DNA from: Candidatus Omnitrophota bacterium
GTDB lineage: Bacteria; Omnitrophota; Gorgyraeia; 2-01-FULL-45-10
DNA: 64,000 nt
Assembly (NCBI GenBank): GCA_041650935.1
Contig: JBAZKH010000002.1
Location: forward strand, 64,372-128,371
Reading direction: 5' to 3'
The notes under the pieces: generated by a model
What the model was told of the DNA's origin: nothing
Seen by the model: only the letters and a program-made list of their open reading frames with translations
Databases searched by the model: none
Shown here: piece after piece, positions 13,220 to 49,873 of the stretch
How positions within the stretch are numbered: the stretch's first letter is position 1
How the letters are laid out: every line of letters begins with the position of its first letter
Translations under genes and position numbers: made by a program

Positions 13220-13279
13220 TTTATTTGGATGAATCGGAATCGAGAACGGTCCAGAAGGTGCCATTTCATAAATTAAACT

Positions 13280-29345: not shown

Positions 29346-29359
29346 GGAGGTAAAAATTT

Positions 29360-33942: not shown

Positions 33943-33950
33943 CAGACCTC

Positions 33951-34394
33951 CTATAAATTAAAGAACAGATATCCGTTCCAATGCGCTCCGGTTATCTCCT
34001 TAGCGATTGCGGATAATGTCTTATAAATCTTTCCGTTATACTCGAAACCTTTCTCAAGTACCTTTACTCGGTACTTAGCGTCATTATATTCCTTAGTAAT
34101 CACAGTTCCCGGAATAGGAAGACGCTTATCCTTGGTACTGGCTGGCAGACATGAAGGCGGCCTATCCGGCCTGAGAGCTTTGTTATTGATAGGATCATAC
34201 TCCTCAATAAGCGCCGAAAGTCGCCCATTGGCCTTGTCTGATAGACTGCCTTGCTCGCGCTCCTGTAGCCTATAAGCGATCTTACGCCAGAGATAGAGCC
34301 TATGGTTACTGGTGGCATCCTCGCCATAAAGCTCCTTATATCTCTCGAGAAGCTCTTCAACAGGCGCACTTTTAAGTGTCATTATCTCGCTCAT
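33951..34394 (-). CDS. DUF2924-family protein (recombinase partner)
   Basis: 147 aa. KRLPIPGTVITKEY...GFEYNGKIYKTLSAIAKEITGAHWNGYLFFNL, paralogous to 6152-6661. Confidence 0.65.
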   Translation of the reverse strand: MSEIMTLKSAPVEELLERYKELYGEDATSNHRLYLWRKIAYRLQEREQGSLSDKANGRLSALIEEYDPINNKALRPDRPPSCLPASTKDKRLPIPGTVITKEYNDAKYRVKVLEKGFEYNGKIYKTLSAIAKEITGAHWNGYLFFNL

Positions 34395-34538
34395 TTTGGC
34401 CCCCTTTCCTTAATACATATATAGCCATAGGTTTTTCGAAATAGCAAGTTATATTAGAGATAAGCACAATATACAGTAGGAATAATTTAGTGTTGGCAAC
34501 ACCAGATTTATGTATCATTAAAATTTATTACTTTTTAC

Positions 34539-34567
34539 TTGACAGAATTATTGCCATGTGATATATT
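34539..34567 (+). promoter_or_regulatory. Sigma70-type promoter for the Type I restriction-modification operon: TTGACA, 17-nt spacer, extended -10 TGaTATATT
   Basis: -35 TTGACA at 34539-34544. Spacer GAATTATTGCCATGTGA. -10 TATATT at 34562-34567 preceded by TG. Confidence 0.5.
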
Positions 34568-34573
34568 TTCTGC

Positions 34574-35185
34574 ATGGTTAAAGATGATATAGACATGACA
34601 GAAAGAACGAAGCCTTTAAAACTATTATCCAAAGAGATATTTTCAGGCGCTCCATTATATAGTACGGAGAAAATGGAAGAAGGCGCGGATGGTCTTCCCT
34701 TGATAAATATTAAGGATGTAGCCGAAGGAACTATTAGACCTGATACGTGTCGGCGGTTAATACCTGGGGATTTTAAGAACTTAGCTAGATATTTAGTATA
34801 TCCGAAAGATGTCGTTGTTACCTGCAGAGGTAGCCTATTGAAAGCCGCTGTTATTCCCGAGAACATCGGCAAGGCTCTAATAACATCAAACTTAATAGCC
34901 GTACGCCTAGACGAGTTAGTGTTACCAGAATTTTTGGCCATATATCTGAATATAAAGGAAGGCCAAAGAAAAATTCTTACGAGCGCAACTTCCGCTGATA
35001 CGCGCCTCGTGCTTACAGTTTCAAACATAGAAGAGTTTGAGATTCCTGTTTTGCCGATCAATTTACAGAAACAGATAATAGATTTAACAGCGTCTTCTGT
35101 TGAACAGTATAGATTGAGTTTGGATGCTGCAGTCACAAGGAAAAAAATTACCGAGCAGATTATAGAAGAACTAATAAAGAAATAG
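34574..35185 (+). CDS. hsdS: Type I restriction-modification specificity subunit, half-size (single target-recognition domain)
   Basis: 203 aa. One target-recognition domain followed by the conserved C-terminal helical region (LQKQIIDLTASSVEQYRLSLDAAV...). Lies directly upstream of hsdM. Confidence 0.55.
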   Translation: MVKDDIDMTERTKPLKLLSKEIFSGAPLYSTEKMEEGADGLPLINIKDVAEGTIRPDTCRRLIPGDFKNLARYLVYPKDVVVTCRGSLLKAAVIPENIGKALITSNLIAVRLDELVLPEFLAIYLNIKEGQRKILTSATSADTRLVLTVSNIEEFEIPVLPINLQKQIIDLTASSVEQYRLSLDAAVTRKKITEQIIEELIKK

Positions 35186-35196
35186 GGAGGATAAAA

Positions 35197-36717
35197 ATGT
35201 CAAAGCTAACAAATGGCGAACTCAATAATTATCTATGGGGTGCAGCAGATATTCTACGCGGCTCGATTGACTCATCCGATTATAAGAACTATATCTTCGG
35301 CTTTCTATTCCTTAAGCGTCTATCCGATGTTTTTGAGGATGAGGCGGAGAAAGTTATACAGAGGGAGCTTAAACGTGGCACATCTCAGGCTGAGGCCACA
35401 AAGATAGCCATGGAAGATCCAGACGAGCATCAATTCTTTGTACCGAAGCGCGCTCGCTGGTCCGAGATACGCAAGGTTTCACAGAATATAGGAGATGAGC
35501 TCAATAAGGCCTGTCATGCTCTCGAAGATAAGAATCAGATCCTCGAGGGCGTTCTTGCAGACATAGACTTTAATTCCAATAAGCTCGGCGATACAAAAAA
35601 CCGCGATTCGGTACTATCACGGCTTGTGAACCACTTCTCTAAAATCAGCCTTAAAAATACAGACCTCGAAGAGCCGGACATGTTGGGTAGGGCCTATGAA
35701 TACCTCATTGAGAAGTTCGCCGACGACGCCGGAAAAAAAGGCGGAGAGTTTTATACGCCGCGGAAAGTTGTCCAGCTGATCGTGGAGCTTCTAAAGCCCA
35801 AAGAAGGTATGCGTATTTGCGATCCCACCTGTGGTTCAGGCGGTATGCTTATCGAATGTGCCCATTATATAGAGAGGAAGAAGGGTAACCCAAGGAATAT
35901 TTCATTGTTCGGCCAGGAAAAGAATCTGGGTACCTGGGCCATATGCAAGATGAACATGCTCCTACATAACCTACCTGATGCAAGAATTGAGAAGGGCGAT
36001 ACAATACGGACTCCCAAACTTGTTAAGGAAGGCGAGTTAATGCTATTTGATAGAGTCATAGCAAACCCGCCATTCAGCTTAAAAGATTGGGGCATGGAAG
36101 CGGCTCAGAATGATGGTTTCGGAAGATTTCGTTATGGCATTCCTCCAAAGACCAAAGGAGATTATGCTTTCATGCAGCACATGATTGCTACAATTAACGA
36201 TAAAGGTATGGTTGGTGTGGTGATGCCTCACGGCGTGCTCTTTAGGGGCGCATCTGAAGGTAAGATCAGGAAAGTCCTGATAGAAGAAGACCGCTTTGAG
36301 ACGGTGATAGGATTAGCCCCGAATCTTTTCTACGGCACCCCCATTCCTGCAACAATTTTAATCTTTAATAGGAACAAACCAAAGGAGCGAAAAAACAAAA
36401 TTTTGTTTATTAATGCTTCAGGATGTTATGAGGGAGGCAAAAATCAGAATAAACTCAGAGCCGCAGATATCGAAAGAATCGTTAGTGCTTTTAATGGATA
36501 TGAGGATATAGAAAGATTTGCTAGGGTAGTTTCGCAGGATGAAATTAAGGAGAACGACTACAATCTTAATATTAGCCGCTACATTGATATGACGGAACCC
36601 GAACCCAGGATCGACGTCAGGGATGCGCTTAAGAAGTTACGCGATCTTGAGGCTCATCGCGATCAGGCTGAAAAAAAGATGGATGAATGCTTGAAGGGAT
36701 TAGGGTATGGGAAATAG
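35197..36717 (+). CDS. hsdM: Type I restriction-modification DNA methyltransferase subunit
   Basis: 506 aa. N-terminal HsdM_N region (LWGAADILRG...YIFGFLFLKRLSD). Motif I DPTCGSGGML, motif IV NPPF (VIANPPFSLKDW). Confidence 0.9.
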   Translation: MSKLTNGELNNYLWGAADILRGSIDSSDYKNYIFGFLFLKRLSDVFEDEAEKVIQRELKRGTSQAEATKIAMEDPDEHQFFVPKRARWSEIRKVSQNIGDELNKACHALEDKNQILEGVLADIDFNSNKLGDTKNRDSVLSRLVNHFSKISLKNTDLEEPDMLGRAYEYLIEKFADDAGKKGGEFYTPRKVVQLIVELLKPKEGMRICDPTCGSGGMLIECAHYIERKKGNPRNISLFGQEKNLGTWAICKMNMLLHNLPDARIEKGDTIRTPKLVKEGELMLFDRVIANPPFSLKDWGMEAAQNDGFGRFRYGIPPKTKGDYAFMQHMIATINDKGMVGVVMPHGVLFRGASEGKIRKVLIEEDRFETVIGLAPNLFYGTPIPATILIFNRNKPKERKNKILFINASGCYEGGKNQNKLRAADIERIVSAFNGYEDIERFARVVSQDEIKENDYNLNISRYIDMTEPEPRIDVRDALKKLRDLEAHRDQAEKKMDECLKGLGYGK

Positions 36718-37951
36718 TCACAAGCTACCTTCCGGATGGAAGCGTATTAAGCTCGGAGAGTATCTTACCGAAATTAGCGATCGCAATAACACAATCAAAG
36801 ATAACGGCGCGCCCGTTCTGAGTGTCACAAACAGACCCGGTTTTTCGATATCAGAGGAGCATTTTTACAAAAAAGTGTTTAGTAAGGATCTGTCTAATTA
36901 CAAAATTATTAAGAGAGGGCAGTTCGCCTATAACCCTTCAAGGGTCAATGTTGGCTCTATAGCACGCCTGAAGGAAGTCGATAAAGGGCTACTCAGTCCT
37001 ATGTATGTTACATTTGAGACCAAGATGGGTCTAAATGAATCATACCTGGATCATTGGATACTCAGTCCTCGCTTTAGAAGCCTTGTCAAGGCTGGCACGC
37101 AAGGTAGCGTAAGGAATTCATTAAATTTCTCTGCTCTTGCAGATTTCCCATTTTACCTTCCACCTGATGAAGAGCAAAAGAAGATAGTTGAAATCCTTGA
37201 TCGTATCGATCTTGTCATCGACCAAACCCAAGCAATTATTGATCAAACTCAAACTCTCAAGAAGGGTCTCATTCAGGAGTTATTCACGCGCGGGATTCCG
37301 AGTAAGAAAAAAAAGTTTATAAAAAGTGAACTTGGGGAAATTCCAGAAAAATGGCAAATTTTAAGGTTTGAAAATATCGTTGCTGACTATAGAAATGGAA
37401 TATATAAACATGAAAGACATTATGGAGCTGGAGTTCCTTGCATCAGAATGTATAACATATTTGATGGCAAGGTTAATACTCGAAATACACCATTAGTGAA
37501 AGCAAGCAAGAAAGAGTTGGTTGATTATGGTTTATTACCAGGGGATATATTAATTAATAGAGTAAATAGTTTAGACCAAGTAGGTAAGGCTGGTATTGTG
37601 AGAGAAGACTTAGGACCGGCTGTTTTTGAAAGCAAGAATATTAGGGTAAGAACAGACGGGTCAAAATGTCTTCCCGAGTATTTAATTACCTTTTTATCAT
37701 CTTCTCTATATTTAAGACAGATGAAACGTGGAATAAAAGCAGCTGTGCAACAGGCAACTATTAATCAAGACGATTTAAATCGAATAAAGATTAGCTTACC
37801 GCAAATAGAAGAGCAGCAGGTCATTATTAATCTTATGCAAAAGATTGATTTAGATATTCAAATTAACCAGACAACATATAATTTTTATCACGAAGTCAAA
37901 TCTGCAATTATGCAGGTCCTTTTGACTGGCGAGGTAAGAATTAAAAAATGA
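36707..37951 (+). CDS. hsdS: Type I restriction-modification specificity subunit, full-length (two target-recognition domains)
   Basis: 414 aa. Two target-recognition domains separated by a central conserved helix, and a C-terminal conserved helix. Overlaps the hsdM stop. Confidence 0.8.
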   Translation: MGNSHKLPSGWKRIKLGEYLTEISDRNNTIKDNGAPVLSVTNRPGFSISEEHFYKKVFSKDLSNYKIIKRGQFAYNPSRVNVGSIARLKEVDKGLLSPMYVTFETKMGLNESYLDHWILSPRFRSLVKAGTQGSVRNSLNFSALADFPFYLPPDEEQKKIVEILDRIDLVIDQTQAIIDQTQTLKKGLIQELFTRGIPSKKKKFIKSELGEIPEKWQILRFENIVADYRNGIYKHERHYGAGVPCIRMYNIFDGKVNTRNTPLVKASKKELVDYGLLPGDILINRVNSLDQVGKAGIVREDLGPAVFESKNIRVRTDGSKCLPEYLITFLSSSLYLRQMKRGIKAAVQQATINQDDLNRIKISLPQIEEQQVIINLMQKIDLDIQINQTTYNFYHEVKSAIMQVLLTGEVRIKK

Positions 37952-37961
37952 GAGGTGTGAA

Positions 37962-39032
37962 ATGAGCGACTATTCTAAATTATTCGAGGCAATATTAAAG
38001 GAGTCGAAAAACGCTAACGGAGCCTTTGGGCAGCTCCTTGACTCCTCAATAAACATACCGGAAGGGATCCGGTCTACGGCTAGTGATAGCCATAATCATT
38101 TGCGAGAATTTTTAGAAGGTGAGCATAAGCGAGATTCGACCTTTCCGCGGGTGTTATCCATAAAAGATGATGATTTCTTGGGAGGTTCTTTTGCAAGACA
38201 TACTAAGATATGGCCGCTGGATGATATAGATATATATTTCCCGTTGGATGGGTTTAATCTGTCTTATCTGCAAAACGGCTATAGGTTGCCATATACCGTT
38301 GTGTCAGATGGCGTGTTATCAAATAACCCATTGTTAGGTAGCCGCTGGACGATCGGAATTTATATATCGTCTTCTAAGTTAGTGACAGAATTTGCAGCAG
38401 TTCTTAAGCGGCACTATCCTGATACTAAAGTTAAACCCGATGGACAATCTGTTGCTATAAGGATGACCCAGGGTGAAACGTCCGATGAAGAAGGTTTGGG
38501 ATACGATATAGTTCCCTGCTTCTCATTGCAGCCGGATAACAAGACGGAAAGCTCTTTTTACCTTATACCCGATGGAAAAGATAACTGGACAAGGACTAAC
38601 CCTAGGATTGACACTGAGATAGCGGAAAAATTACACGTCGCTAACAATAAAACATATAGGAAAGTAGTTAAAATTGTGAAATATTGGAATAAAGAAAAGT
38701 TTCGTAGCATATTACCTTCCTATTATATTGAATTGGCTATAGCAAAGGGCTACATACAGAAAAATAAAGAGGGCGAGAATATAAACAGCCTTTCTTATGG
38801 TGTGGCAGTTGGATTCTGGGCTCTTAATGAGGCTATTAAACAGGGTGGTCAAGACTCATTTCTGCCATTGGCGCCCAAGGTTTACCCGGGACAATTAGAC
38901 GAAGGGCATAAGTTAATAATAGGTGCAGCCCACTCTGTTTCTCTTCAGGCTTGGGATGCTGAGAAAGCTGGCAATCAAGATCAAGCGATAAGTCACTGGA
39001 AGCGGATTTTTGGTGATACGTTTGGAGCGTAA
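37962..39032 (+). CDS. cGAS/DncV-like nucleotidyltransferase (CD-NTase-like). Candidate CBASS cyclase.
   Basis: 356 aa. GGSFARHTKIWPLDDIDIYF gives the GS-x11-[DE]h[DE]h motif. Third acidic residue at GYDIVPC. C-terminal VVKIVKYWNKEK resembles the OAS/cGAS KxW helix. RBS GAGAGGTG. Confidence 0.55.
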   Translation: MSDYSKLFEAILKESKNANGAFGQLLDSSINIPEGIRSTASDSHNHLREFLEGEHKRDSTFPRVLSIKDDDFLGGSFARHTKIWPLDDIDIYFPLDGFNLSYLQNGYRLPYTVVSDGVLSNNPLLGSRWTIGIYISSSKLVTEFAAVLKRHYPDTKVKPDGQSVAIRMTQGETSDEEGLGYDIVPCFSLQPDNKTESSFYLIPDGKDNWTRTNPRIDTEIAEKLHVANNKTYRKVVKIVKYWNKEKFRSILPSYYIELAIAKGYIQKNKEGENINSLSYGVAVGFWALNEAIKQGGQDSFLPLAPKVYPGQLDEGHKLIIGAAHSVSLQAWDAEKAGNQDQAISHWKRIFGDTFGA

Positions 39033-39042
39033 AGGATAAGCC

Positions 39043-39864
39043 ATGAAATTAACAGACCGATTAATCGAAGCTATGAGATCCGAGTTTGGTAAGAGCAAGA
39101 GATGGTATCATAGAAGTATTTGTGCAAGCTTAGGGATGTTGCTACTATCAGTAATCCTGGTTCCTTGTTCGTCCGGCATATCCGCAGTCATATTAGGGAT
39201 GGGCTTATTTATCTTACCGATGCTCTTATTTGTATCACGCGAATTTTCATTAGAACATCAGGATCGCGCTGAGTATATTAGGCGCTCTCTTATGTTGGCA
39301 GATGCTCTCGATCATAAGCCATCAAAAATTGAATTAGCTCAACTCAAAATCGACGTGGGAAGCATAGACAGAAGCGAGCCATTATTCGATAAACGTTATT
39401 ACGACTCTAAAATAGCTGTTGGGCCGAGTAGATTGATTGATATTTTAGCAGAATCAGCATTTTTTACGCATAACCTAAGTAAGCGTGTAGCCTATATTTT
39501 AGGGGGCATAATTTGTGTCGGCGTTGTTGGTCTATTTTTTGTCCTTTATATGCTTCTTAGTATACCTGTCGGGCATGAGATATCCTTGGTGGTTGCCAAA
39601 TGGGCTGCTCTAGTTATGTCATTCTTAGCAGCAGGAGATTTTTCATATTTATTTCGTAGATCTTTTTGTTTGTCCATAGCTTCCAAAAATGTGTTAAGTA
39701 AAAGCGATGTGTTCATAAAGAATGGAAATATTTCTGCAGAAGATGCAATGGAATTGGCAGATGAATATAACTGCGCTGTTATACAGTCGCCGCCAATTCC
39801 GGGTGCAATTTATAAGTACATGCTCAAATCATTGAATGAAGCATGGCGAAAGAGGCAATCATGA
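39043..39864 (+). CDS. Multi-pass membrane protein. Candidate CBASS membrane effector.
   Basis: 273 aa. Four hydrophobic segments (LGMLLLSVILVPC, VILGMGLFILPMLLFV, IICVGVVGLFFVLYMLL, AALVMSFLAAG). Immediately follows the nucleotidyltransferase. Its stop overlaps the hsdR start. Confidence 0.45.
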   Translation: MKLTDRLIEAMRSEFGKSKRWYHRSICASLGMLLLSVILVPCSSGISAVILGMGLFILPMLLFVSREFSLEHQDRAEYIRRSLMLADALDHKPSKIELAQLKIDVGSIDRSEPLFDKRYYDSKIAVGPSRLIDILAESAFFTHNLSKRVAYILGGIICVGVVGLFFVLYMLLSIPVGHEISLVVAKWAALVMSFLAAGDFSYLFRRSFCLSIASKNVLSKSDVFIKNGNISAEDAMELADEYNCAVIQSPPIPGAIYKYMLKSLNEAWRKRQS

Positions 39865-42842
39865 CCAGTAAAGGTTGGAACGAGTTACACTTATCAGAAG
39901 ACTCGACCGTTGAGCTCCTGCAGGCTCTAGGGTATACGTTTGTCCCCCCTGAGCAATTGGAGACAGAACGAGGTAGCCTTAAAGAGATAGTGTTGACCTA
40001 TCGCCTGGAGAAGAAGCTCAAAGAGATAAATCCTTGGCTTTCAGATGAGAATCTTAAAAAGGCGGTTCGTGCCATAACCACTGTTCCAGCAACGAGTCTT
40101 ATCGAGGCAAATGAAAAGATTTATACGTCTTTGGTTCATGGTGTTTCCATTGAGCAGGATATAGGCGATGGGCAAGGCAAGAAGGGTCACAGCGTATCCT
40201 TCATTGATTTTGATCACCCAGAGAAAAATGAGTGCGTAGTTACCCGCCAATTTAAAGTTGCTGGGCCAAAAGAAAATATTAAGTGCGATGTTGTCGTCTT
40301 TATTAACGGTATCCCTGTTGTTTTAATAGAGTGTAAAAATCCCACGATTCTTGATCCTATTAATAAAGCAATCGAGCAGCTTTTTAGATATCAGGAGCTA
40401 AAAGAAGAATATAAAGATAGGGGCGCACCTAAGCTATTCGAAACCATGCAGCTTCTTATAGCCACGTGTGGGCAGCAGGCAAAATATGCTACCGCTTATA
40501 CTCCATATCGTCATTATCTCGAATGGAAGGTTCCATATCCGATCAGCCTCGATGAATTAAATGAAAAATATACCAAAAGATTGTTTGGAAGGACGCCCAA
40601 TCCGCAAGATATTCTCATATATGGCCTGCTTGAAATCAGCAATCTGCTTGATATAATCAGAAATTTTATTTCTTTTGAGGTTGAGGGTGGGAAGACCATA
40701 AAGAAGATAGCTCGCTATCAGCAATTCATAGCTGTCAATAATGCCATCAGAAGAATTCAGAAGGAGAAAAGTTCGAAGAAGCGCGGAGGCGTTATCTGGC
40801 ATACTCAGGGCTCAGGCAAGTCTCTTTCTATGCTTTGGCTTGCTGTTAAGCTAAAGAGATGTAGAGAGCTTGAAAATCCCACCCTAGTTATTGTTACGGA
40901 TCGCGTAGATCTTGATAATCAGATTGTTGGAACATTCCAAAGATGTGGTTTCCCGAATCCGGCTCAGGCAAAGAGCGTAGCTAATCTGCGCGAGCTTATT
41001 AGGCAGGGGAATGGGCAAACAGTCATAACTACTATTCAGAAGTTTCAAGAAGCATCCGAAAATACAAGACATCCTGTGTTGTCAGAGGCAGAGAATGTAT
41101 TTGTGATGGTGGATGAAGCGCATAGAACACAGTATAAGAATTTAGCAGCCAATATGAGGCAGGCATTACCTAATGCGTGTTTCTTTGGCTTTACAGGCAC
41201 GCCAATAGATAAGAAAGATCGTAGCACTATACAGACCTTCGGGCCGTATATCCATACTTATACAATCGAGCAAGCCGTACAGGATGGGGCTACCGTCCCC
41301 ATTTATTATGAAAGCAGGCTTCCTGATGTTCATGTACAAGGTGAGAATCTTGATACCATTTTCGACAGATATTTTCAGGAATATAGCGAAAAAGAACGTG
41401 AAGAGATAAAGCGAAAATATGCCACAGAAGAGATAATTGGCCTTGCGTCCTCTAGGGTGGAAGCCATATGCCTAGATATTATTGATCATTATGAAAAATT
41501 CATCATGCCAAATGGCTTTAAGGCTCAGATTGTAACTCCGAGCAGAGAAGCTGCTATTATGTACAAGGAGATGCTTGATAAGCTCAGTGGTCCACCATCA
41601 GCAGTTTTGATATCAGGTAGTAACAATGACCCACAGCGGCTTAAGAAGCATCACAAGACTCAGGCTGAGGAGAAGGAGATAATTCGTAGTTTTAAGGAAG
41701 ATCCCGTTGAAAAATTAGCCATTATTATTGTCTGTGACAAGCTTTTAACTGGTTTCGATGCTCCTGTGGAACAAGTAATGTATATCGATAGCCCTTTAAA
41801 AGACCACACGCTCCTACAGGCGATAGCACGTGTAAATAGAACCGCAGACAAGAAAGACTACGGCCTTGTAATTGACTATTGGGGTATTTCAAAAGATCTA
41901 CAAGAGGCGCTTATTGTATTTCAACCTACTGATATAGTAGGAGCGTTAACTCCAAAAACGGATGAATTGCCAAGGCTTGAAGCACGTCATAGAATTGCTA
42001 TGCATTTCTTTGATAAAGTGACCAGAGATGATCTTGAGACATGTATAAAAATAGTAGAGCCAGAAGATGTAAGGGCAGAGTTTGATCTTGCATTCAGACG
42101 TTTTGCGCAGAGTATGGATATGGTTTTACCAGATCCTGCAGCATTACGGTATAGTTCTGATTTAAAATGGCTAGGCAAGATTAGAAATGCCGCGAGAGCT
42201 CGTTTTAGAGACTCTTCCCTAGACTTATCGAGTTGTGGTGCAAAGGTGAGGCAGCTTATCGAAGAACACATAAAAACCGATGGCGTACAGAGGCTACTTG
42301 AGCCAGTTTCCATTTTTTCAAAGAAGTTTGATGAATTTGTTGAAAACCTTACTACACCAGAAGCAAGGGCGAGCGAAATTGAACATGCTATGCGGCATGA
42401 AATCCACGTTCATCTTCAGGAAGACCCTGTATTTTTCGAATCTTTAAAAGCGCGTCTTGAGAAGATAATCGAAGAGAGGAAGCAGCAAAGGATAGATGCT
42501 GTTGAAGAGCTCAAACGCCTAAATTCATTAGTTGAGGAAATGCGTAATATTGGCAAGGTGGCCGAAGACCTAGGTTTCACAGAGACAGAATATGCATTCT
42601 ATAAGATGTTAAAGGCAAGTAGTGGCAAAAAAGATGACAATAGCTATGAAGCTTTGGCCCATTCAATCGTTAAAGCTTTAGAAAATCTGGCAGTTATAGA
42701 TTGGGTGCATAAAGATGACGTTCAGCGAGAAATGCGTAGGCAGATAAAAAGTATTCTTCGTTCAGGAGGTTATCAATTTGAAGAGATCGAAATCTTGATT
42801 GCCAAGATTATGGATTTAGCGAGGGTAAGACTGGCCAAATGA
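39843..42842 (+). CDS. hsdR: Type I restriction-modification endonuclease subunit
   Basis: 999 aa. PD-(D/E)xK motif VVFINGIPVVLIECK. Helicase Walker A HTQGSGKSL. DEAH (MVDEAHRTQ). Motif VI QAIARVNR. Confidence 0.9.
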   Translation: MAKEAIMTSKGWNELHLSEDSTVELLQALGYTFVPPEQLETERGSLKEIVLTYRLEKKLKEINPWLSDENLKKAVRAITTVPATSLIEANEKIYTSLVHGVSIEQDIGDGQGKKGHSVSFIDFDHPEKNECVVTRQFKVAGPKENIKCDVVVFINGIPVVLIECKNPTILDPINKAIEQLFRYQELKEEYKDRGAPKLFETMQLLIATCGQQAKYATAYTPYRHYLEWKVPYPISLDELNEKYTKRLFGRTPNPQDILIYGLLEISNLLDIIRNFISFEVEGGKTIKKIARYQQFIAVNNAIRRIQKEKSSKKRGGVIWHTQGSGKSLSMLWLAVKLKRCRELENPTLVIVTDRVDLDNQIVGTFQRCGFPNPAQAKSVANLRELIRQGNGQTVITTIQKFQEASENTRHPVLSEAENVFVMVDEAHRTQYKNLAANMRQALPNACFFGFTGTPIDKKDRSTIQTFGPYIHTYTIEQAVQDGATVPIYYESRLPDVHVQGENLDTIFDRYFQEYSEKEREEIKRKYATEEIIGLASSRVEAICLDIIDHYEKFIMPNGFKAQIVTPSREAAIMYKEMLDKLSGPPSAVLISGSNNDPQRLKKHHKTQAEEKEIIRSFKEDPVEKLAIIIVCDKLLTGFDAPVEQVMYIDSPLKDHTLLQAIARVNRTADKKDYGLVIDYWGISKDLQEALIVFQPTDIVGALTPKTDELPRLEARHRIAMHFFDKVTRDDLETCIKIVEPEDVRAEFDLAFRRFAQSMDMVLPDPAALRYSSDLKWLGKIRNAARARFRDSSLDLSSCGAKVRQLIEEHIKTDGVQRLLEPVSIFSKKFDEFVENLTTPEARASEIEHAMRHEIHVHLQEDPVFFESLKARLEKIIEERKQQRIDAVEELKRLNSLVEEMRNIGKVAEDLGFTETEYAFYKMLKASSGKKDDNSYEALAHSIVKALENLAVIDWVHKDDVQREMRRQIKSILRSGGYQFEEIEILIAKIMDLARVRLAK

Positions 42843-43579
42843 TAACGGAAAAAGGAACAATAGCATTCGGGAGCCATAATATAGACTTCTTCATACGACG
42901 AAGCAGCAGAAGAAGGACTATAAGTCTTTTTGTCGATCCCCACGAAGGAGTATTTCTGAGAGCGCCGCTGGGACCATCAGTTGATTCGCTAATAAAATTG
43001 GTGCATTCTAAAGCTGACTGGATCATAAAGAAGCAGAAGCAAATCGAAGAAGTGGGTGAGTTTCTTCCTAAGAGAGAGTTTGCTAATGGCGAAACATTTT
43101 TATATCTTGGGCGGCAGTTTCGTCTTAAAGTTTTAAGATTAGATAAAGCATCTTCAAGCAAAGTGAAATTTACGAATGGATGCTTTATAGTTTCTATCAA
43201 TGATGAATATACAGAAGTGGGCAAAAAGAGAGTCATGAGGAAGTTACTAACCAATTGGTACAAGAGGCATGCTCGCAACGCATTATTTAATAGGATTAAA
43301 ATTTACGCTAAGAAGCTAGATCTTGCACCAGTGGAGTTTGCTTTAGCAAACCAGAGCAAGCGGTGGGGCAGTTGTAGCCATAAAGGCAAGGTCAGATTCA
43401 ATTGGCATATTATTATGGCTCCTCTATCTCTAATTGATTACGTTGTCGTTCATGAGCTCTCACACCTAAAGCAACCAAACCACTCGCAAGAATTTTGGAA
43501 ATTATTAGGCAACGTAATGCCTGATTATGAAATAAGGCGCGATCGACTTCGCAAAGAAGGGCATAAGTTTTATTTTTAA
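42839..43579 (+). CDS. DUF45/YgjP-like (M48-family) zinc metallohydrolase, commonly co-transcribed with hsdR
   Basis: 246 aa. HExxH motif VVHELSHLKQPNHSQEF. Overlaps the hsdR stop. Confidence 0.65.
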   Translation: MITEKGTIAFGSHNIDFFIRRSSRRRTISLFVDPHEGVFLRAPLGPSVDSLIKLVHSKADWIIKKQKQIEEVGEFLPKREFANGETFLYLGRQFRLKVLRLDKASSSKVKFTNGCFIVSINDEYTEVGKKRVMRKLLTNWYKRHARNALFNRIKIYAKKLDLAPVEFALANQSKRWGSCSHKGKVRFNWHIIMAPLSLIDYVVVHELSHLKQPNHSQEFWKLLGNVMPDYEIRRDRLRKEGHKFYF

Positions 43580-43621
43580 TATGTTTAATAGCAAAAATAG
43601 CAATATTATTTCGGAGACAAT

Positions 43622-44398
43622 ATGCAATTTCAATATTATGACCTAGGTAATCTAAATGGCGGAGAAATAGTTGAGGTTATTCTTTCAGGGAACTCCGCTA
43701 ATGTCAGATTGATGGACAGTTCAAATTATAGTAGCTTTAAAAATGGTAGACATCATACATATTATGGTGGACTTGCAAAAAGTTCCCCCGTTAGGATTCC
43801 TGTCCCAAGATCTGGGCACTGGTATGTGACTGTTGATTTAGGCGGATATCGTGGTACGGTAAGAACATCGGTTAATGTTTTGCCAGGCGCGCTTCCTGAG
43901 TTACGACAAGTCCCGCTATCGAGCGTTCCAACTCTTCGCTTGGATAGAGATTATACTAATGGTCAATTTGTAGAAAGAGAGGAACATAGGGAATACGATG
44001 TTTTTGTTTCTCATGCATCAGAAGATAAGGATGAAGTGGTGCGGCCTTTAGCTATAAAGTTACAATCAAAGGGTCTGAAAGTCTGGTATGATGAGTTTGA
44101 GTTAAAAATCGGAGATAGTCTTAGAAGAAAAATTGATAAAGGACTTGCAAACAGTCGATTCGGGATAGTTGTACTTTCAACCGCATTTATTGGCAAGGGC
44201 TGGGCAAATTATGAATTAGACGGAATTGTAACAAAAGCAGTTTCTGGCCAACAAGTGATTCTTCCAATTTGGCACAATATAACAAAACAGCAAGTCATTG
44301 ATTATAGCCCCTCCCTCGCAGATAAGCTTGCAAGGAATACAGCAATAAATACTATTGATGAGATAGCGGAGGAGATATATGGGGTTGTCAAAAGTTGA
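43622..44398 (+). CDS. TIR-domain protein with an N-terminal DUF1883-like domain
   Basis: 258 aa. C-terminal half YDVFVSHASEDKDEVVRPLAIKLQSKGLKVWYDEFELKIGDSL... is a classical bacterial TIR. The N-terminal 100 aa (QYYDLGNLNGGEIVEVILSGNSANVRLMDSSNYSSFKNG...) recalled as DUF1883-like. Confidence 0.65.
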   Translation: MQFQYYDLGNLNGGEIVEVILSGNSANVRLMDSSNYSSFKNGRHHTYYGGLAKSSPVRIPVPRSGHWYVTVDLGGYRGTVRTSVNVLPGALPELRQVPLSSVPTLRLDRDYTNGQFVEREEHREYDVFVSHASEDKDEVVRPLAIKLQSKGLKVWYDEFELKIGDSLRRKIDKGLANSRFGIVVLSTAFIGKGWANYELDGIVTKAVSGQQVILPIWHNITKQQVIDYSPSLADKLARNTAINTIDEIAEEIYGVVKS

Positions 44399-44457
44399 GT
44401 ACGTTATTGTATATATAGGCATAAGATAAAGGTTACATAAATAAAAGGAGGTTTATT

Positions 44458-44691
44458 ATGTCTGACCGAAAACGCGTGTGGGTTTCGCCTGATGGCGAGG
44501 GTGGATGGAACGTGAAGACTCAAGGGAAAAGCAAGGCTGCAGGTAATTTTGAAGATAAAAGCAATGCAATTGATAAGGCTAAGGATATTGCGCAAAATGC
44601 ATCAAAAGGGCAGGTTATTATTCAAAAAAGAGATGGCACTATTCAAACTGAATATACTTACGGGAAAGATCCGTATCCACCGAAGGGGTAG
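44458..44691 (+). CDS. DUF2188-family small protein
   Basis: 77 aa. VWVSPDGEGGWNVKTQGKSKAAGNFEDKSNAIDKAKDIAQNASKGQVIIQKRDGTIQTEYTYGKDPYPPKG fits the DUF2188 pattern. Strong RBS AAGGAGG. Confidence 0.55.
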   Translation: MSDRKRVWVSPDGEGGWNVKTQGKSKAAGNFEDKSNAIDKAKDIAQNASKGQVIIQKRDGTIQTEYTYGKDPYPPKG

Positions 44692-44730
44692 AACTTATTT
44701 CTGATATATAAGCAGGGGCAAACGCAGGAT

Positions 44731-45558
44731 ATGAAAAAACTCCACAATTTTTTTCTATATCTATTTATTGCCTTACTTTTAGTCCCAGGTTGCAATGTTT
44801 CTACTAAGTCTCAACCTGCAACAGCCCAAAGCACAGGCCTCTTTGCGCATACGAAAAGAGCCGATAACAATGAGCACATTCTTTTCGGCTATCCCGGCCA
44901 CGAAAAAATCATTCTTTACCGCAAAGGCTATGTTTTAGGATATAACCCAGATAAGAAGAATGCAGACTGGGTAAGTTACCATTTTACCGAAGCCTATTGT
45001 GTCAAGAACGCAGGTAGGACAGGAGATTTTAGGCCAGACCCAGATTTGCCTCCCGGACAAAGGGCAGAATTAGTTGATTACAAGAATAGCGGTTATGATA
45101 AGGGTCACTTAGCTCCTGCCGCGGATATGGCAAGAGACACACAGACAATGTCCGAGAGCTTTCTTTTATCAAATATGACACCACAGGTGGGTATTGGCTT
45201 CAATAGAGGCATATGGAAGAACCTAGAAGAGAAGGTAAGGAGCTGGGTACACCAGAAGAAAAATATCTATGTCTTTACAGGGCCTATCTATGCGAACTCC
45301 ACTTACAAGACCATAGGGCCAAACAGGGTAGCCGTTCCTGCGCATTTCTATAAGATAATAGTTTCCTGCACAGAAACAGGGGAAAACCTTGATTCGATAG
45401 CGTTTATTCTTCCTAACCAAAAAGGGCCCGGTAATATGCTGCCACAATTTATTACTTCTATTAGAGAGATTGAAAAACGCACCGGATTAGACTTTATGCA
45501 TGATCTCGATGATGATATTGAAAATAAACTCGAAACCAAAACAGCAAAAATGTGGTAA
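44731..45558 (+). CDS. Secreted or lipoprotein DNA/RNA non-specific endonuclease (Serratia NucA family)
   Basis: 275 aa. Signal peptide with lipobox LVPGC. Active-site region GYDKGHLAPAAD (DRGH-type). Confidence 0.7.
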   Translation: MKKLHNFFLYLFIALLLVPGCNVSTKSQPATAQSTGLFAHTKRADNNEHILFGYPGHEKIILYRKGYVLGYNPDKKNADWVSYHFTEAYCVKNAGRTGDFRPDPDLPPGQRAELVDYKNSGYDKGHLAPAADMARDTQTMSESFLLSNMTPQVGIGFNRGIWKNLEEKVRSWVHQKKNIYVFTGPIYANSTYKTIGPNRVAVPAHFYKIIVSCTETGENLDSIAFILPNQKGPGNMLPQFITSIREIEKRTGLDFMHDLDDDIENKLETKTAKMW

Positions 45559-45576
45559 AGAAGAGGGGATAAAAAT

Positions 45577-46140
45577 ATGGGCAAAATAATTGATCCAAAG
45601 AAAATTAGAATAGGCGATGTTATACTTGTAGCGAGCGGCACAGCCGCTACTATTTGGGTACAACAAAAGTTGGGGTATGGAGATAGAAGCAAATGGACTC
45701 ATGTAGCGGGATGTATGGGGGGCTATGATTTAATTGAAGGGCAAGTTCCAAGATCAAGAGTCTGTGACCTGCAAAAGAACTATGTTGATAAAAAGATTGA
45801 AATAAAAGTAATGAGAAAGACTTATGATAACAATTATCCTAGAATAAAAATAGCTCTTTGGTGGGCTTCTATGAATAATACACTTTATGATTTTCCTCAA
45901 CTTTTGTGGTATCCTATAAAAGCAATTGGCCATATTTGGCCAGCATTAGGAAATTGCCTGTTGCATGTAAATAATATATTTAACAACAAAAAATTGCTTA
46001 TTTGTTCAGAATTATTAGCCAGTGGTTTTTATAAAGAAAATTATTATATATTTGGTAAGACAGCCGAAAATGTGCTGCCAGCAGATTTTGATGACTCCAC
46101 TATATTTAACGAAGTAACCGATATCTGGCTAGAAGTATAA
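45577..46140 (+). CDS. YiiX/YaeF-like permuted papain-fold amidase (Peptidase C92 family), soluble form
   Basis: 187 aa. IGDVILVASG...SKWTHVAGCMG and downstream CSELLASGFY. Same family signature as 13280-14011. Confidence 0.45.
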   Translation: MGKIIDPKKIRIGDVILVASGTAATIWVQQKLGYGDRSKWTHVAGCMGGYDLIEGQVPRSRVCDLQKNYVDKKIEIKVMRKTYDNNYPRIKIALWWASMNNTLYDFPQLLWYPIKAIGHIWPALGNCLLHVNNIFNNKKLLICSELLASGFYKENYYIFGKTAENVLPADFDDSTIFNEVTDIWLEV

Positions 46141-46370
46141 AAAGTAAAATATATTTAACTTAAATAATATCAATAATTTATAACTTGCATTTTCTTATAT
46201 TTGTGGTATATTTATAGCGAGAGTGTTAATAAAAAATACTCTTCTTTGTAGCAGATAGTACCGCTACCTAATTCATGTGGCGCCTAACAGCGGCATGAGT
46301 CCAAATTAACGGATTCGTGCCGCTTTTTTTGTTGCCAGCGGCACCTAATGGCTAAAATTGGAGGTGCCAC

Positions 46371-47648
46371 ATGAAGATTCAAAAAGTAAAAGTTTCAGAA
46401 ATCAACCCCGCTGTTTACAATCCTCGTATTACACTTCAGCCAGGCGATGCCGAGTATGAGGGTCTTAAGAAAAGTATCCTAACGTTCGGCCTGGTTGAGC
46501 CACTTGTTCTAAATAAGCGCACAGGCAACCTTGTCGGTGGTCACCAACGGTTGAACATACTTATCGCTGCTGGATTTGAAGAAGTAGAGGTAAGTGTCGT
46601 AGATCTCGATCCTACGCAGGAAAAAGCTCTTAATCTCGCCTTAAACAAAATCCAGGGCGATTGGGACAATGAAAAGCTCGCGGTCTTACTAGAGGAGCTA
46701 ACCAAGATCCCTGACTTTGACATCGGCCTCACGGGCTTTGACTTGCCGGAAATTAGTGAAATCCTGGATAAAGCCGAAGATGCCAGGGAAGATGAGTTCG
46801 ACCTCGATAAAGAGCTCGATAATTTAGGTAATGCCGTAACTCAAAAAGGCGACCTTATTCTTCTCGGCAAACATAGGCTACTGTGTGGTGATTCTTCAAA
46901 TCCAGAAGATATAAAGAGGTTAATCGGTGATGAAAAGGTTAACCTGATTTTTAGCGATCCGCCATACAATGTCAATTACTATGGTGGCAATCGACCGGTG
47001 GATAACGTTCGCCCAAAAAAATCGCGTGATTGGAATAGGATTTATAACGATAATTTGAGCCAGGCAGAATACGAAAAATGGCTTAAAACGATCCTTAAAA
47101 ACGTGACTCCATATCTTGCGCCGGGCGCGCCTTGTTATTTGTTTAATGGGTCGGCCCAATTTGGGTCTATGTACCAGATGCTTACCGAGCTGAAATTTCA
47201 TGTTTCATGCGTAATAACTTGGGCAAAGGAAAGCTTCTCCATCGGTTATGGCGATTATAACCAGCAGACCGAGTTTTGTCTCTACGCCTGGAAAGAAAAT
47301 AATGGTGCACATAATTGGTATGGCCCTACAAATGAGTCAACCCTCTGGCAGATAAAGCGAGACCATACCGCCAGCTATGATCACCCGACCCAGAAACCTG
47401 TCGCTTTGGCTCACCGCGCGATAAAGAATAGTTCCAAACGGGGGGACGTTGTCCTGGACATGTTTTTGGGTTCGGGCACCACCTTAATCGCGGCAGAGGG
47501 CTTGCATAGGGCATGTCTTGGGATCGAGATTGATCCTCATTATTGCGATGCCATAGTGCGCCGCTACATTTCTTGTATAGGTAAGAACAAGGTACCAGCG
47601 GAGCTTGTGAAAAAGTACTATAGCGAGGCGCAGCATGTCAGTAAATAA
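46371..47648 (+). CDS. ParB-like nuclease domain fused to a beta-class DNA methyltransferase (paralogue of 28086-29345)
   Basis: 425 aa. GGHQRL. IFSDPPYNVNYYGG. FLGSGTT. Collinear with the first copy. Confidence 0.75.
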   Translation: MKIQKVKVSEINPAVYNPRITLQPGDAEYEGLKKSILTFGLVEPLVLNKRTGNLVGGHQRLNILIAAGFEEVEVSVVDLDPTQEKALNLALNKIQGDWDNEKLAVLLEELTKIPDFDIGLTGFDLPEISEILDKAEDAREDEFDLDKELDNLGNAVTQKGDLILLGKHRLLCGDSSNPEDIKRLIGDEKVNLIFSDPPYNVNYYGGNRPVDNVRPKKSRDWNRIYNDNLSQAEYEKWLKTILKNVTPYLAPGAPCYLFNGSAQFGSMYQMLTELKFHVSCVITWAKESFSIGYGDYNQQTEFCLYAWKENNGAHNWYGPTNESTLWQIKRDHTASYDHPTQKPVALAHRAIKNSSKRGDVVLDMFLGSGTTLIAAEGLHRACLGIEIDPHYCDAIVRRYISCIGKNKVPAELVKKYYSEAQHVSK

Positions 47649-48312
47649 CGATCAGGCCAATAAAGAGCAGCCTATCCTTGTGCTGATCCAAGACATAAAG
47701 GAAGGCCGCGTAGCGCCTGAAGTTGTCGATAAGGACTTGCGCCAGCAGTGTGTCGAAGTGTTTTTGGGTGAGGGGTACACCGTTGCCTCAATAGCTCAGA
47801 TATTTAAGAAGTGCGATAAGACAATCCGGCGCGATATCGAGGATATAAGAGCACGCAACGCCATTACGCCGGATATAGACCTGGCCAAAAAGACCATAGG
47901 TGAGATGGTCGTATATATGCATACCCACCGGGCGTACCTAATGCGCCTTGCGCGCTCAAAAGATGCCTCGCTGGCCGAAAAGGCCCAGGCCGAATACTTG
48001 GCGGCTCGTATAGGCCTAGAACTGATCGCCAAGCTGCAAACCCTGGGGTTCCTGCCTTTAAAACCTCAGGAGATCGTTGCTGATATCTCGCATCATGTAG
48101 CTGCCGATAATGAGAGTTCGTTCGGAGAATTGAGATCTGAGATAGTAGAGATAGAGAGAATTTCGAAGGAATCCGGAGAGTTGACGCCGGAAATGGTAAA
48201 AGAGCTTGAGAATTTAAAAAAGAGAATTGAAAAAGCGGAAATACAGGATAGCGTAATCAAAATATCATCCCATGCGGATGAGGAAGGGAAAAAAGATGAA
48301 AAAGATAATTGA
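47635..48312 (+). CDS. HTH-containing TerS-like protein (paralogue of 29360-30034)
   Basis: 225 aa. VASIAQIFKKCDKTIRRDIEDIRARNA helix-turn-helix. Confidence 0.4.
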   Translation: MSVNNDQANKEQPILVLIQDIKEGRVAPEVVDKDLRQQCVEVFLGEGYTVASIAQIFKKCDKTIRRDIEDIRARNAITPDIDLAKKTIGEMVVYMHTHRAYLMRLARSKDASLAEKAQAEYLAARIGLELIAKLQTLGFLPLKPQEIVADISHHVAADNESSFGELRSEIVEIERISKESGELTPEMVKELENLKKRIEKAEIQDSVIKISSHADEEGKKDEKDN

Positions 48313-49873
48313 AACTATCAGTAGCGAGATCGGGAGGATCAGAAGGAGGGCGGGAATGGATTTCATCAGTTTCCGTAACTTTTATTTCCAACATTATAAT
48401 AAAAGTCCGGATGGCGAATTCCAGAAAGAATTATCGCAAATCCTCGCCAATATGACTACAAGAAGAGGCGCGCGATATGCAATAGCGGCGCCGCGTGGAT
48501 TCGCAAAAAGCACGATCGTAGGATTACAGTATGTGATCTATTGTATTTGCTATAAGCTTGAGGACTTCATTGTGATAGCCTCCAGCACAAGCAGTCAAGC
48601 GACGGATTTTTTGCGGCATATTAAAGAGGAGTTCGAGAACAACGAAAGATTAAAATTGGACTTTCCGGAAGTTTGCGAAGTCGGCAGTAAGCTAAGCCCA
48701 CCGCGGTGGACACAGAGCGAGATCATCACCAGTAATGACGTGAAGGTCATCGCTCTAGGCACGGGACAACAGTTAAGGGGTCGCAGACACAAAGAATCGC
48801 GGCCTACGTTAATAGTTCTTGATGATATCGAAACCGATGAGTCGGTGGAGAATCCAGATAGTCGTTATAAGCTGGAAGATTGGATAAATAAGACCGTCCT
48901 AAAGGCAGGTGATGCTAGAACCAATGTTATAATTATTGGTACGTTGCATCATCCCGCATCTCTACTGGCAAAATACACTGACCCCAAACAATCGCCCGGT
49001 TGGACCAGTAAAATATACAAGGCGATAATATCGCATGCCGAACATGTCGAGCTATGGGAAAAATGGAAGCGGATACTCTCAGGTAAAGAAACCTACAATG
49101 GGGAATTTGGTAGGGATGCGGCATTTGCGTTTTATAAAAAGCACGAAAGTACTATGCTTGAAGGAGTGAAGCTTTTATGGCCGGACTTCAAGAGCTATCA
49201 CGATCTTATGTTGATGCGGGAACAGGAGGGTTATTCCAGCTTCGATTCCGAAATGCAAAACGAACCCATTAACTCAAGGGACTGCGCCTTTAATATGGAA
49301 GAGGTGAGCTATCGAGAGGATGAATTTGAATCCGAGGAGCATTTAATGCGTGCAATGCGGCACGAAATACTATGTTTTGGGTCATGCGATCCGAGCCTCG
49401 GCAAAGAAGGGAAACAGAGCGACGACTCAGCCATAGTTGTTGTTGCTTGGAATGCTGAAAGAGGGAAGATCTATGTATTGGAGGCCGATATTGCCAGGCG
49501 CAGCCCCGATAAGACGATAGAAGATATACTGGCCCATCACATGAAGCATGAGATTGTGGGGTTTGCCTTTGAGACAAACCAATTTCAGGAGATTATGGCA
49601 AAGGATCTTATAAAGCGCGCCAGGGAAAGATGTATACCGGTACGGCTTAAGGAGGTGAGAAATACCGGGGATAAGCTTGCCAGGATACAGTCGCTTCAGG
49701 CCCTTATCAAGAGCGGTGCTATAGTATTTTCCAGGAAGCATCAGACCTTGCTTGAGCAGCTACGGTATTTCCCTAAGGGCCCGCATGACGATGGGCTGGA
49801 TGCATTGGAGATGGTAGTGCGGTTATGCTATAAGCCACCAAGAGACTACAGATTGTTATCTATACCGTGGTAA
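48272..49873 (+). CDS. Phage terminase large subunit (paralogue of 30031-31728). The true start may be the internal Met at 48296.
   Basis: Walker A AIAAPRGFAKST, Walker B LIVLDDIETDE. C-terminal nuclease GSCDPS. RBS GAGGAAGGG lies upstream of ATG 48296. Confidence 0.7.
   Translation: MRMRKGKKMKKIIETISSEIGRIRRRAGMDFISFRNFYFQHYNKSPDGEFQKELSQILANMTTRRGARYAIAAPRGFAKSTIVGLQYVIYCICYKLEDFIVIASSTSSQATDFLRHIKEEFENNERLKLDFPEVCEVGSKLSPPRWTQSEIITSNDVKVIALGTGQQLRGRRHKESRPTLIVLDDIETDESVENPDSRYKLEDWINKTVLKAGDARTNVIIIGTLHHPASLLAKYTDPKQSPGWTSKIYKAIISHAEHVELWEKWKRILSGKETYNGEFGRDAAFAFYKKHESTMLEGVKLLWPDFKSYHDLMLMREQEGYSSFDSEMQNEPINSRDCAFNMEEVSYREDEFESEEHLMRAMRHEILCFGSCDPSLGKEGKQSDDSAIVVVAWNAERGKIYVLEADIARRSPDKTIEDILAHHMKHEIVGFAFETNQFQEIMAKDLIKRARERCIPVRLKEVRNTGDKLARIQSLQALIKSGAIVFSRKHQTLLEQLRYFPKGPHDDGLDALEMVVRLCYKPPRDYRLLSIPW

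Follow-up and report, generated by a model that had tools for sequence, protein, structure and literature searches.

The four small genes at positions 43,622 to 46,140 of a 64,000-nucleotide stretch of a Candidatus Omnitrophota genome (contig JBAZKH010000002.1; this whole stretch is hereafter the window) encode, in order, a DUF1883-TIR protein, a DUF2188 protein, a NucA-type endonuclease and a protein without a Pfam family, ORF4. Our analysis indicates that this 2.5-kb stretch is likely a mosaic in which three cassettes, each mobile on its own, share the variable cargo slot of an integrative element. A first-pass annotation of the DNA had presented it as a cluster of four small genes of defence type. 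All four were found where it had placed them, as plus-strand open reading frames (ORFs), and the defence-island neighbourhood was borne out. Its domain calls held for DUF1883-TIR, DUF2188 and an Endonuclease_NS protein, a predicted lipoprotein, but not for a "second C92 amidase", as ORF4 has no Pfam or NCBIfam match and is only a remote relative of that family. The four ORFs do not overlap (intergenic gaps of 59, 39 and 18 nt, in order), and the first begins 42 nt after a YgjP-like gene. A strong intrinsic-terminator-like hairpin closes the co-directional block 3' of ORF4, and a consensus terminator scan found no such hairpin between the four genes. They are probably transcribed as the tail of a restriction-modification (R-M) operon that ends at this hairpin (Table 1).

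The boundaries of the cassettes emerge from related loci. Relatives of the DUF2188 protein with 82–94% identity were inspected in their contigs, which were compared with the window by blastn. One contig, L176, has no TIR gene; its order is a homologue of the 39043 gene (58%), HsdR (86%), YgjP (66%) and DUF2188 (87%). Window positions 39861–43581 correspond to L176 269–3989 and positions 44442–44691 to L176 3985–4234; the segment in between, the TIR cassette of Table 1, is a clean insertion or deletion relative to L176. In L175, the order is a 1267-aa gene, a 3' remnant of the TIR gene, DUF2188 (94%), a 116-aa gene and a ParB-methylase (80%). The remnant comprises 27 codons (L175 3896–3976, peptide ADKLARNTDVNTVEEIAKEI) with 78% nucleotide identity to window 44318–44393, so the TIR gene was lost or replaced here while DUF2188 stayed. 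Its position upstream of DUF2188 indicates that the TIR-DUF2188 junction is older than the window. In L177, DUF2188 tails a Multi_ubiq/E2/E1 operon. The syntenic element in L181 contains a serine recombinase (59%), DUF2924 (56%), a type I R-M system, a 329-aa gene and DUF2188 (82%), and farther along a ThsB_TIR gene of another family, AbiGi and NucA (61%). ORF4 is missing from this element, and the 188-aa gene that follows NucA is not a homologue of it (no match by hidden Markov model).

NucA and ORF4 align as a single DNA block, window 44845–46130, with 74% nucleotide identity in L090. Contigs L090–L092 and the P0121 contig have NucA (75%) and ORF4 (75% and 94%) separated by 21 nt, in other contexts. 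In L098, an ORF4 homologue (61%) is followed by a 140-aa gene, a ParB-methylase (53%), a TerS-position gene (49%) and TerL (45%). The four-gene stretch is composed of three blocks: TIR, DUF2188, and NucA with ORF4. Searches of the cassette junctions for repeats and hairpins returned only short, chance-level matches. As for the ancestral order of the cassettes, we infer that DUF2188, as a small accessory gene, was in place before TIR inserted upstream of it.

Linkage was then assessed from the side of the TIR gene, in 80 genomic and 2 viral loci that hold its closest relatives, each taken with 10 kb on either side. The window neighbours served as queries against these loci, by tblastn and, for every ORF of 40 aa or more, by phmmer. 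DUF2188 adjoins TIR in a single locus (L075), and homologues of NucA and of ORF4 occur in none of the 82. When the three genes on either side of TIR were clustered, the neighbours proved heterogeneous, and no recurrent downstream partner was found among these loci. HsdR lies within 10 kb of TIR in 7–9 of them. The closest relatives examined in context, those on long contigs with 88–89% identity, reside in unrelated islands: one is located between a BglII-type R-M system and an SMC_N/large-helicase system, another adjoins GmrSD, and a third adjoins DUF5677 and SNF2 genes. Likewise, the DUF2188 relatives described above have no intact TIR gene of the AbTir type. The proposal that the four genes form a linked unit thus failed, since no conserved linkage was found elsewhere.

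These data also bear on the alternative that all four genes constitute one co-adapted defence system, with a TIR sensor or signal driving the nuclease and with DUF2188 and the amidase as accessories. The shared orientation, the tight spacing and the single terminator after ORF4 would suit such a system, as would L181, where DUF2188, the ThsB_TIR gene and the NucA homologue lie within 4.4 kb. However, the L181 genes are interspersed and in another order, with ORF4 missing, and each block has homology boundaries of its own, seen in different relatives. Neither NucA nor ORF4 accompanies TIR in the 82 loci. Moreover, a nuclease with a lipoprotein signal would act outside the cytoplasm, beyond the reach of a nucleotide signal made by TIR. 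We consider a four-gene system extremely improbable.

The TIR protein itself belongs, as judged from its sequence, to the characterised AbTir/BtTir/TcpB group. Pfam recognises DUF1883 (PF08980, 6.5e-36, aa 1–88), TIR_2 (6.8e-20) and TIR (1.9e-14), and phrog_9211 covers the protein over its full length (7.9e-112). In a phmmer search of the PDB, residues 123–256 matched AbTir (7UWG, 2.1e-55; 8G83, 5.3e-55; also 7UXU), BtTir (7UXR, 2.4e-52) and TcpB (4LZP, 2.5e-44); further structures of relatives are TcpB 4LQC and 4C7M and PdTIR 3H16. By our own count of the printed alignment, the TIR domain is about 70% identical to the crystallised AbTir. Residues 2–90 match Atu1913, a DUF1883 structure (2B1Y, 2.4e-16). 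The AlphaFold2 (AF2) model of the N-terminal domain is a beta-sandwich (pLDDT 81). In a fold search it matched other beta-sandwiches only weakly (GOLD, collagen-binding and PliG-like; E of at least 5e-3), and these matches point to no specific ligand.

AbTir is a NADase that produces 2' cyclic ADP-ribose (2'cADPR). Its E208A mutant is dead, activity depends on W204, G174 and S176, and the active form is a filament (10.1101/2022.05.07.491051). Expression of AbTir in E. coli lowers NAD+ (10.1101/2023.05.19.541320). With an offset of 10, the window protein carries the corresponding residues for catalysis, assembly and ligand contact (W194, E198, G164, S166, K192, W217 and S133), E198 of the WANYE motif being equivalent to AbTir E208 and W194 to AbTir W204. 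The motif W..[YH]EL[DN]G is kept in 120 of 120 homologues among the matches listed. Together with W194xxxE198 this places the catalytic glutamate in the protein and supports the NADase-type domain named in the first-pass annotation. The two proteins share the two-domain build, and the Acinetobacter locus L029 aligns over residues 1–257 with 68% identity. They differ in that T205 of AbTir is Ala195 in the window protein, and in setting: the window comes from an uncultured environmental bacterium, in which the gene lies in an R-M-linked cargo slot rather than in a pathogen chromosome. By homology with AbTir, the protein would self-assemble, cleave NAD+ and make 2'cADPR via E198.

The family is large and widespread. 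It comprises at least 7,998 clusters at 90% identity, and all 120 homologues among the matches listed share the two-domain build of about 258 aa. Relatives with 63–84% identity occur in Aminicenantes, Bacteroidota, Bacillota, Chloroflexota, Planctomycetota, Omnitrophota, Desulfobacterota and Gammaproteobacteria, including Acinetobacter, and full-length members with about 64% identity are found on 115 plasmids. PADLOC assigns the protein to PDC-S66 (1.5e-73) and ThsB (1.3e-42); the PDC-S66 match is strong, although this is a candidate model and covers the TIR half only. The TIR half also matches RT-TIR_XII, the type XII retron reverse transcriptase-TIR model (1.2e-19), and the protein matches NCBIfam NF042941 (retron-TIR, 1.8e-30). 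By these profile matches, the same clade is also used as a fused effector domain of retron reverse transcriptases, which fits a role as an effector NADase.

Additional features were observed in this family. For a mobile gene it is unusually conserved, with 63–95% identity over 258 aa across at least eight phyla and hardly any length variation. In Bacteroidales loci (L037, L038, L049, L057, L062, L063, L065–L067, L069, L070, L073, L076, L078 and L079), a 745-aa AAA-type ATPase, a 337-aa protein and a protein of about 100 aa precede DUF1883-TIR, the last gap being 2–5 nt. This arrangement, about 4 kb 5' of the TIR gene, does not occur in the window and possibly represents a multi-gene system around the family. 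The gene of about 100 aa was considered as a general upstream partner of TIR and rejected: it forms the largest cluster of neighbours, at position -1 in 17 of 82 loci, but mostly in this one Bacteroidales arrangement. On two KPC plasmids, L182 (E. coli pKPC-b33e) and L183 (Aeromonas), DUF1883-TIR stands beside a second, divergent TIR-domain gene; the pair lies inside a Tn3-family transposon context, next to blaKPC-2.

The DUF2188 gene has its own strong ribosome-binding site (AAGGAGG). Its product matches PF09954 (3.2e-18; 66.1 bits, cut-off 22; profile positions 2–62 of 62), phrog_3220 and, over its full length, PADLOC PDC-S16 (7.5e-24), which again is a candidate model only. We take PDC-S66 and PDC-S16 to be catalogued as single-gene candidates, from the "S" in their names; read in this way, they fit the independent mobility of TIR and DUF2188. 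A recent paper assigns DUF2188 a HicB-like fold and points to a solved structure, 5JN6; earlier work, as cited in 10.1101/2022.04.27.489752, ties it to a number of further defence contexts. The gene is small and promiscuous, and in defence islands it closes many unrelated systems at their 3' end. As a side observation, ubiquitin-like conjugation operons (Multi_ubiq, Prok-E2_E, ThiF E1, TCAD9, BubE) at L176 4651–8234 and L177 1922–4234 are directly followed by close DUF2188 relatives. Upstream in L177, genes for a helix-turn-helix (HTH) protein and an M78 peptidase lie on the opposite strand.

The juxtaposition of TIR and DUF2188 resembles Thoeris, in that a TIR gene with ThsB model matches has a small gene immediately downstream. 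The first-pass annotation had judged the locus not to be a canonical Thoeris, and we agree. There is no ThsA or SIR2-SLOG gene near TIR, PADLOC returned only ThsB-type models and PDC-S66 for the TIR protein, and Pfam and PADLOC detected no SLOG, Macro or similar signal-binding effector domain in the three genes downstream of TIR. Unlike Thoeris, the window pair includes no SLOG, Macro, SIR2 or other recognised signal-binding effector. In Thoeris, TIR is also found in a conserved operon with its effector, and the single DUF2188 neighbour among the 82 loci does not correspond to this. The only SLOG-like gene in the window (16090–17133) is cargo of another element, 27 kb from TIR. Its product is of the LOG/SLOG type (Lysine_decarbox 1.5e-25, SLOG cluster4 9.9e-10), is extended at the N-terminus by about 80–120 residues and has no PADLOC match.

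The pair itself is already catalogued. A preprint from the Sorek laboratory scanned TIR operons in defence islands, removed standalone TIRs, annotated 29 putative Thoeris types, a DUF2188 type among them, and termed DUF2188 a "putative effector" in its main text (10.64898/2025.12.03.692087). Its Table S1 lists 33 TIR genes with a DUF2188 neighbour. In one row, ga0265297_10000132117, the TIR domain is identical to window residues 124–257 (134 of 134); L098, described above, comes from the same metagenome. The other AbTir-like TIRs listed are 59–84% identical to the window TIR. On this basis, TIR and DUF2188 might be a two-gene Thoeris-like system in which TIR senses infection and makes 2'cADPR and DUF2188 is the effector, with NucA and ORF4 unrelated. 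L075 has the same order at close spacing (TIR 64%, DUF2188 36%, 12-nt gap as compared with 59 nt in the window), so that both DUF2188 genes found in TIR loci lie immediately 3' of TIR, and the L175 remnant occupies the corresponding position. Against this, DUF2188 is missing from the 10-kb flanks of 81 of the 82 TIR relatives, and an intact AbTir-type TIR accompanies none of the four closest DUF2188 relatives that were examined; these tail hsdR-YgjP, ubiquitin-like E2/E1 operons and the 1267-aa gene, and L176 keeps DUF2188 without any TIR. An adjacency of about 1% is on the order expected for two common defence-island genes (the background rate being an estimate), and the DUF2188 type is not among the 30 operons assayed in the preprint. 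We therefore regard a two-gene system as unlikely. The pairing recurs but is rare (about 1%), dispensable in close relatives and probably not obligate.

The third gene encodes a nuclease with a whole-length match to Endonuclease_NS (1.4e-55, 188.8 bits against a cut-off of 23) and PDB matches to EndoG, Anabaena NucA and Serratia nuclease. With these enzymes it shares the full-length family match, the catalytic His in D-x-G-H, the Asn metal ligand and the N..W..LE segment; the motif reads DKGH in the window protein and DRGH in theirs, the catalytic His being kept. The N-terminus, MKKLHNFFLYLFIALLLVPG followed by C21, is a lipoprotein-type signal with LVPG directly before the Cys, and in the segment MKKLHNFFLYLFIALLLVPGC a charged start precedes a hydrophobic core (KD 2.47), the Cys coming after the lipobox-like LVPG. 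We regard its Pro at -2 as unusual for a lipobox and the lipobox as slightly atypical. The first-pass annotation's exported nuclease with a lipobox and a DKGHLAP active site is in agreement with these features, and we predict an exported lipoprotein. Export would be shared with NucA and Serratia nuclease, which have a plain secretion signal rather than a lipoprotein signal. Furthermore, the neighbour of the window nuclease is a Cys-His enzyme-like protein and not a NuiA-type inhibitor. A porin gene in the window suggests a diderm host, in which the nuclease would be periplasmic or surface-anchored and so an unlikely target of a cytoplasmic nucleotide signal.

ORF4 gave no Pfam match even at E ≤ 10, PF05708 (C92) included, no NCBIfam match (YiiX, YaeF) and no match in a profile search against PDB sequences. 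Its 180 homologues are about 180 aa long, with no Pfam domain in any among the matches listed; searches of IMG/VR viral contigs and of plasmids found no member of the family. Invariant in the alignment are H42, E54, C143-S144-E145, a WWA.MNN..YD segment and D172. The AF2 model (pLDDT 78.1, pTM 0.75) has as its first Foldseek match 3KW0, a "cysteine peptidase" of the permuted NlpC/P60 type from B. cereus (E 1.1e-3, probability 1.00, TM 0.47–0.55), followed by HRASLS3, AdPLA and then classical NlpC/P60 at weak scores. ORF4 is a remote permuted NlpC/P60 relative of an unnamed family and not a C92 protein by any curated threshold. Like the YiiX/YaeF C92 and LRAT/HRASLS proteins, it has the permuted order with the His ahead of the Cys, E54 as the polar residue 12 positions beyond that His, and CSE on a helix; it differs from C92 by scoring below the curated thresholds and by a long helical insert at about 86–138. 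C92 amidases had been reported at both 13280 and 45577. The former, in the first element of Table 1, passes PF05708, borderline, at 28.0 bits against a cut-off of 27 (protein 13280–14011), and the latter, ORF4, does not match it. Aligned with hhalign, the two give a probability of 66% and E 5.8e-5 over 130 columns, with GD.IL, H.A and CSEL..FY aligned. No signal peptide was found in ORF4, which is predicted to be cytoplasmic.

The same annotation had suggested that C92 amidases are accessories of defence genes. This was not sustained for ORF4, whose only conserved partner is NucA and not TIR, and whose other clades have other exported phosphodiesterases beside them. We examined 80 metagenomic loci plus L090–L094 and scanned 91 immediate neighbours against Pfam. 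These include PLDc_2 (8), Exo_endo_phos (EEP, DNase I-like; 2) and Endonuclease_NS (1), the rest being heterogeneous. Phospholipase D (PLD)/HKD genes adjoin ORF4 homologues in L123, L127, L131, L141, L142, L144, L162 and L163, to which a Nuc-like gene in L116 can be added, EEP genes in L093 and L101, and Endonuclease_NS genes in the window, L090 and the P0121 contig. Signal or lipoprotein-type peptides begin all the PLD-like (about 500 aa), EEP and NS neighbours. The reading frames often overlap or abut, and several phosphodiesterase genes overlap the ORF4 homologue by 4–20 nt. PLD-adjacent homologues form one clade (74–91% mutual identity) with the PLD gene on either side, EEP-adjacent ones a second (84%) and NS-adjacent ones a third. 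Exported proteins are not generally enriched beside ORF4 (21% at ±1 and 20–24% at ±2); it is these particular phosphodiesterase families alone that stand out.

The pattern is suggestive of three or four independent associations of ORF4 clades with exported phosphodiesterases of three superfamilies. In the window, NucA would act outside the cytoplasm and travel with ORF4, a putative cytoplasmic Cys-His enzyme. That ORF4 represents a new family of cytoplasmic permuted-NlpC/P60 Cys-His enzymes which are dedicated partners of exported phosphodiesterases is a tentative idea, and we hold it to be rather doubtful. Such enzymes could protect the producer before export, or process or anchor their phosphodiesterase partners.

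Whether the TIR protein serves defence is a separate question. It might instead be a host-interaction or metabolic factor, a virulence mimic like TcpB/TcpC or a NAD-RNA decapping enzyme, which hitch-hikes on mobile elements. AbTir strips nicotinamide from NAD-capped RNA, as described in PMC10937652, and the family is spread on clinical plasmids. On the other hand, relatives with 63–84% identity are spread over many phyla in free-living and uncultured lineages (Aminicenantes, Omnitrophota, Chloroflexota and Planctomycetota among them), the genes recur in R-M operons and defence islands beside HsdR, BglII-type, GmrSD and SMC-type neighbours, and the protein matches the PADLOC candidate and ThsB models. 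We judge a non-defence role quite improbable. In a defence role, the DUF1883 beta-sandwich may be the regulatory or sensor part of a standalone TIR protein, whose output would be either NAD+ depletion (abortive infection) or a signal to an effector encoded elsewhere.

Several points weigh against a mosaic with a standalone immune TIR. The L075 gene order, the L175 remnant and the 33 pairs of the preprint make some functional coupling of TIR and DUF2188 possible. NucA and ORF4 also occur apart, as in L181 (NucA without ORF4) and in most ORF4 loci, which have no nuclease. Co-transcription is read from spacing and the consensus terminator scan only. The anti-phage role of DUF1883-TIR proteins is putative, PDC-S66 being only a candidate model, and the close structural relatives TcpB and TcpC have been described as virulence factors, the role in which AbTir relatives such as TcpB were first reported (10.1101/2023.05.19.541320).

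Table 1. Coordinates of the four genes, the cassettes and the two surrounding elements in the window
Feature	Position	Strand	Size	Description	Source
First element	4570–31728			Same design as the second element, immediately upstream; recombinase 4570–6144 on the minus strand	
First element, right end	28086–31728			ParB-methylase at 28086, 224-aa protein, TerL 30031–31728	
Second element	32347–49873		~17.5 kb	Serine recombinase, DUF2924, type I R-M, cargo, ParB-methylase, terminase	
Large serine recombinase	32347–33942	-		Left end of the element holding the four genes	
Type I R-M genes	within 32347–49873			hsdS fragment, hsdM, hsdS, hsdR	
HsdR	39843–42842	+		Type I restriction subunit, left flank of cargo slot	
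YgjP-like metallopeptidase	42839–43579	+		Start overlaps hsdR stop	
TIR cassette	43582–44441	+	860 bp	TIR gene plus ~40 nt each side; absent from collinear L176	
DUF1883-TIR gene	43622–44398	+	258 aa	DUF1883 beta-sandwich aa 1–88, TIR domain aa 123–256	ORF listing, Pfam
Catalytic Glu codon	44213–44215	+		W194xxxE198 (W194-A-N-Y-E198); BB-loop G164-D-S166-L167	
DUF2188 gene	44458–44691	+	77 aa		ORF listing, Pfam
NucA-type endonuclease gene	44731–45558	+	275 aa	DKGH 123–126; SNMTPQ 147–152, metal-ligand N148 (Mg-binding Asn); NRGIWKNLEE	ORF listing, Pfam
ORF4	45577–46140	+	187 aa	Without Pfam family	ORF listing
Intrinsic-terminator-like hairpin	46289–46334	+		Strong; 14-bp stem, 8 G-C pairs, T-run	
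ParB_N-fused N6/N4 DNA methyltransferase	46371–47648	+		Right flank of cargo slot	
TerS-position protein	47635–48312	+	225 aa		
Large terminase TerL	48272–49873	+		Right end of element	

The four genes lie in the second of two adjacent elements of the same design (Table 1). The composition profile shows a G+C content of about 40% across 4–55.5 kb against about 52% in the flanks. Three tRNA genes are located at 2.6–3.9 kb, and an Rfam scan of the window found these tRNAs only. Of the genes scanned in the two elements, none was recognisable as coding for a capsid, portal or tail protein; both elements consequently look like satellites or remnants and not like full prophages. Direct repeats of 12 nt or longer were not found at the element ends, and a megablast search of 43–56 kb against phage genomes gave no match. 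ParB-methylase relatives on viral contigs were tried for delimiting the cargo slot and set aside as too distant (30–45% identity, one partial match at 64%).

Both elements carry further defence genes. The first contains a type III R-M system, an LmuB-like ATPase and the C92 protein. At 10832–15026, the LmuB-like SMC ATPase (PADLOC LmuB 4.4e-42) is followed by the C92 protein and an HTH-SocA/Panacea protein (14265–15026), and a Lamassu-like system might have its effector partner in the C92 protein. In the second element, an HsdS-like ORF at 34574–35185 (203 aa, Methylase_S 4.7e-4), upstream of hsdM and next to the recombinase and DUF2924, may be a spare specificity half-gene. Nested between hsdS and hsdR, at 37962–39864, is a minimal cyclic-oligonucleotide-based antiphage signaling system (CBASS), with a SMODS/CD-NTase cyclase (PADLOC Cyclase 9.6e-49) and a protein of 273 aa that matches the CBASS 4TM effector model (1.1e-20); L176 also has a 4TM-like gene directly upstream of hsdR.

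Taken as likely cassettes, the tidy row of four "defence-type" genes would be a chance juxtaposition in a cargo hotspot and not a new multi-gene system. The association of ORF4 with exported phosphodiesterases is a small lead, the only one here with some novelty. L176, which has no TIR gene, and L175, with its TIR remnant, are natural controls for the role of DUF2188 in TIR signaling. More broadly, the stretch ties a large, conserved DUF1883-TIR family to AbTir, an enzyme of known chemistry whose virulence or immune role is still debated in the literature. The repeated placement of AbTir-type genes in R-M operons and defence islands argues that their products serve as mobile single-gene modules of immunity or abortive infection, not as virulence factors.

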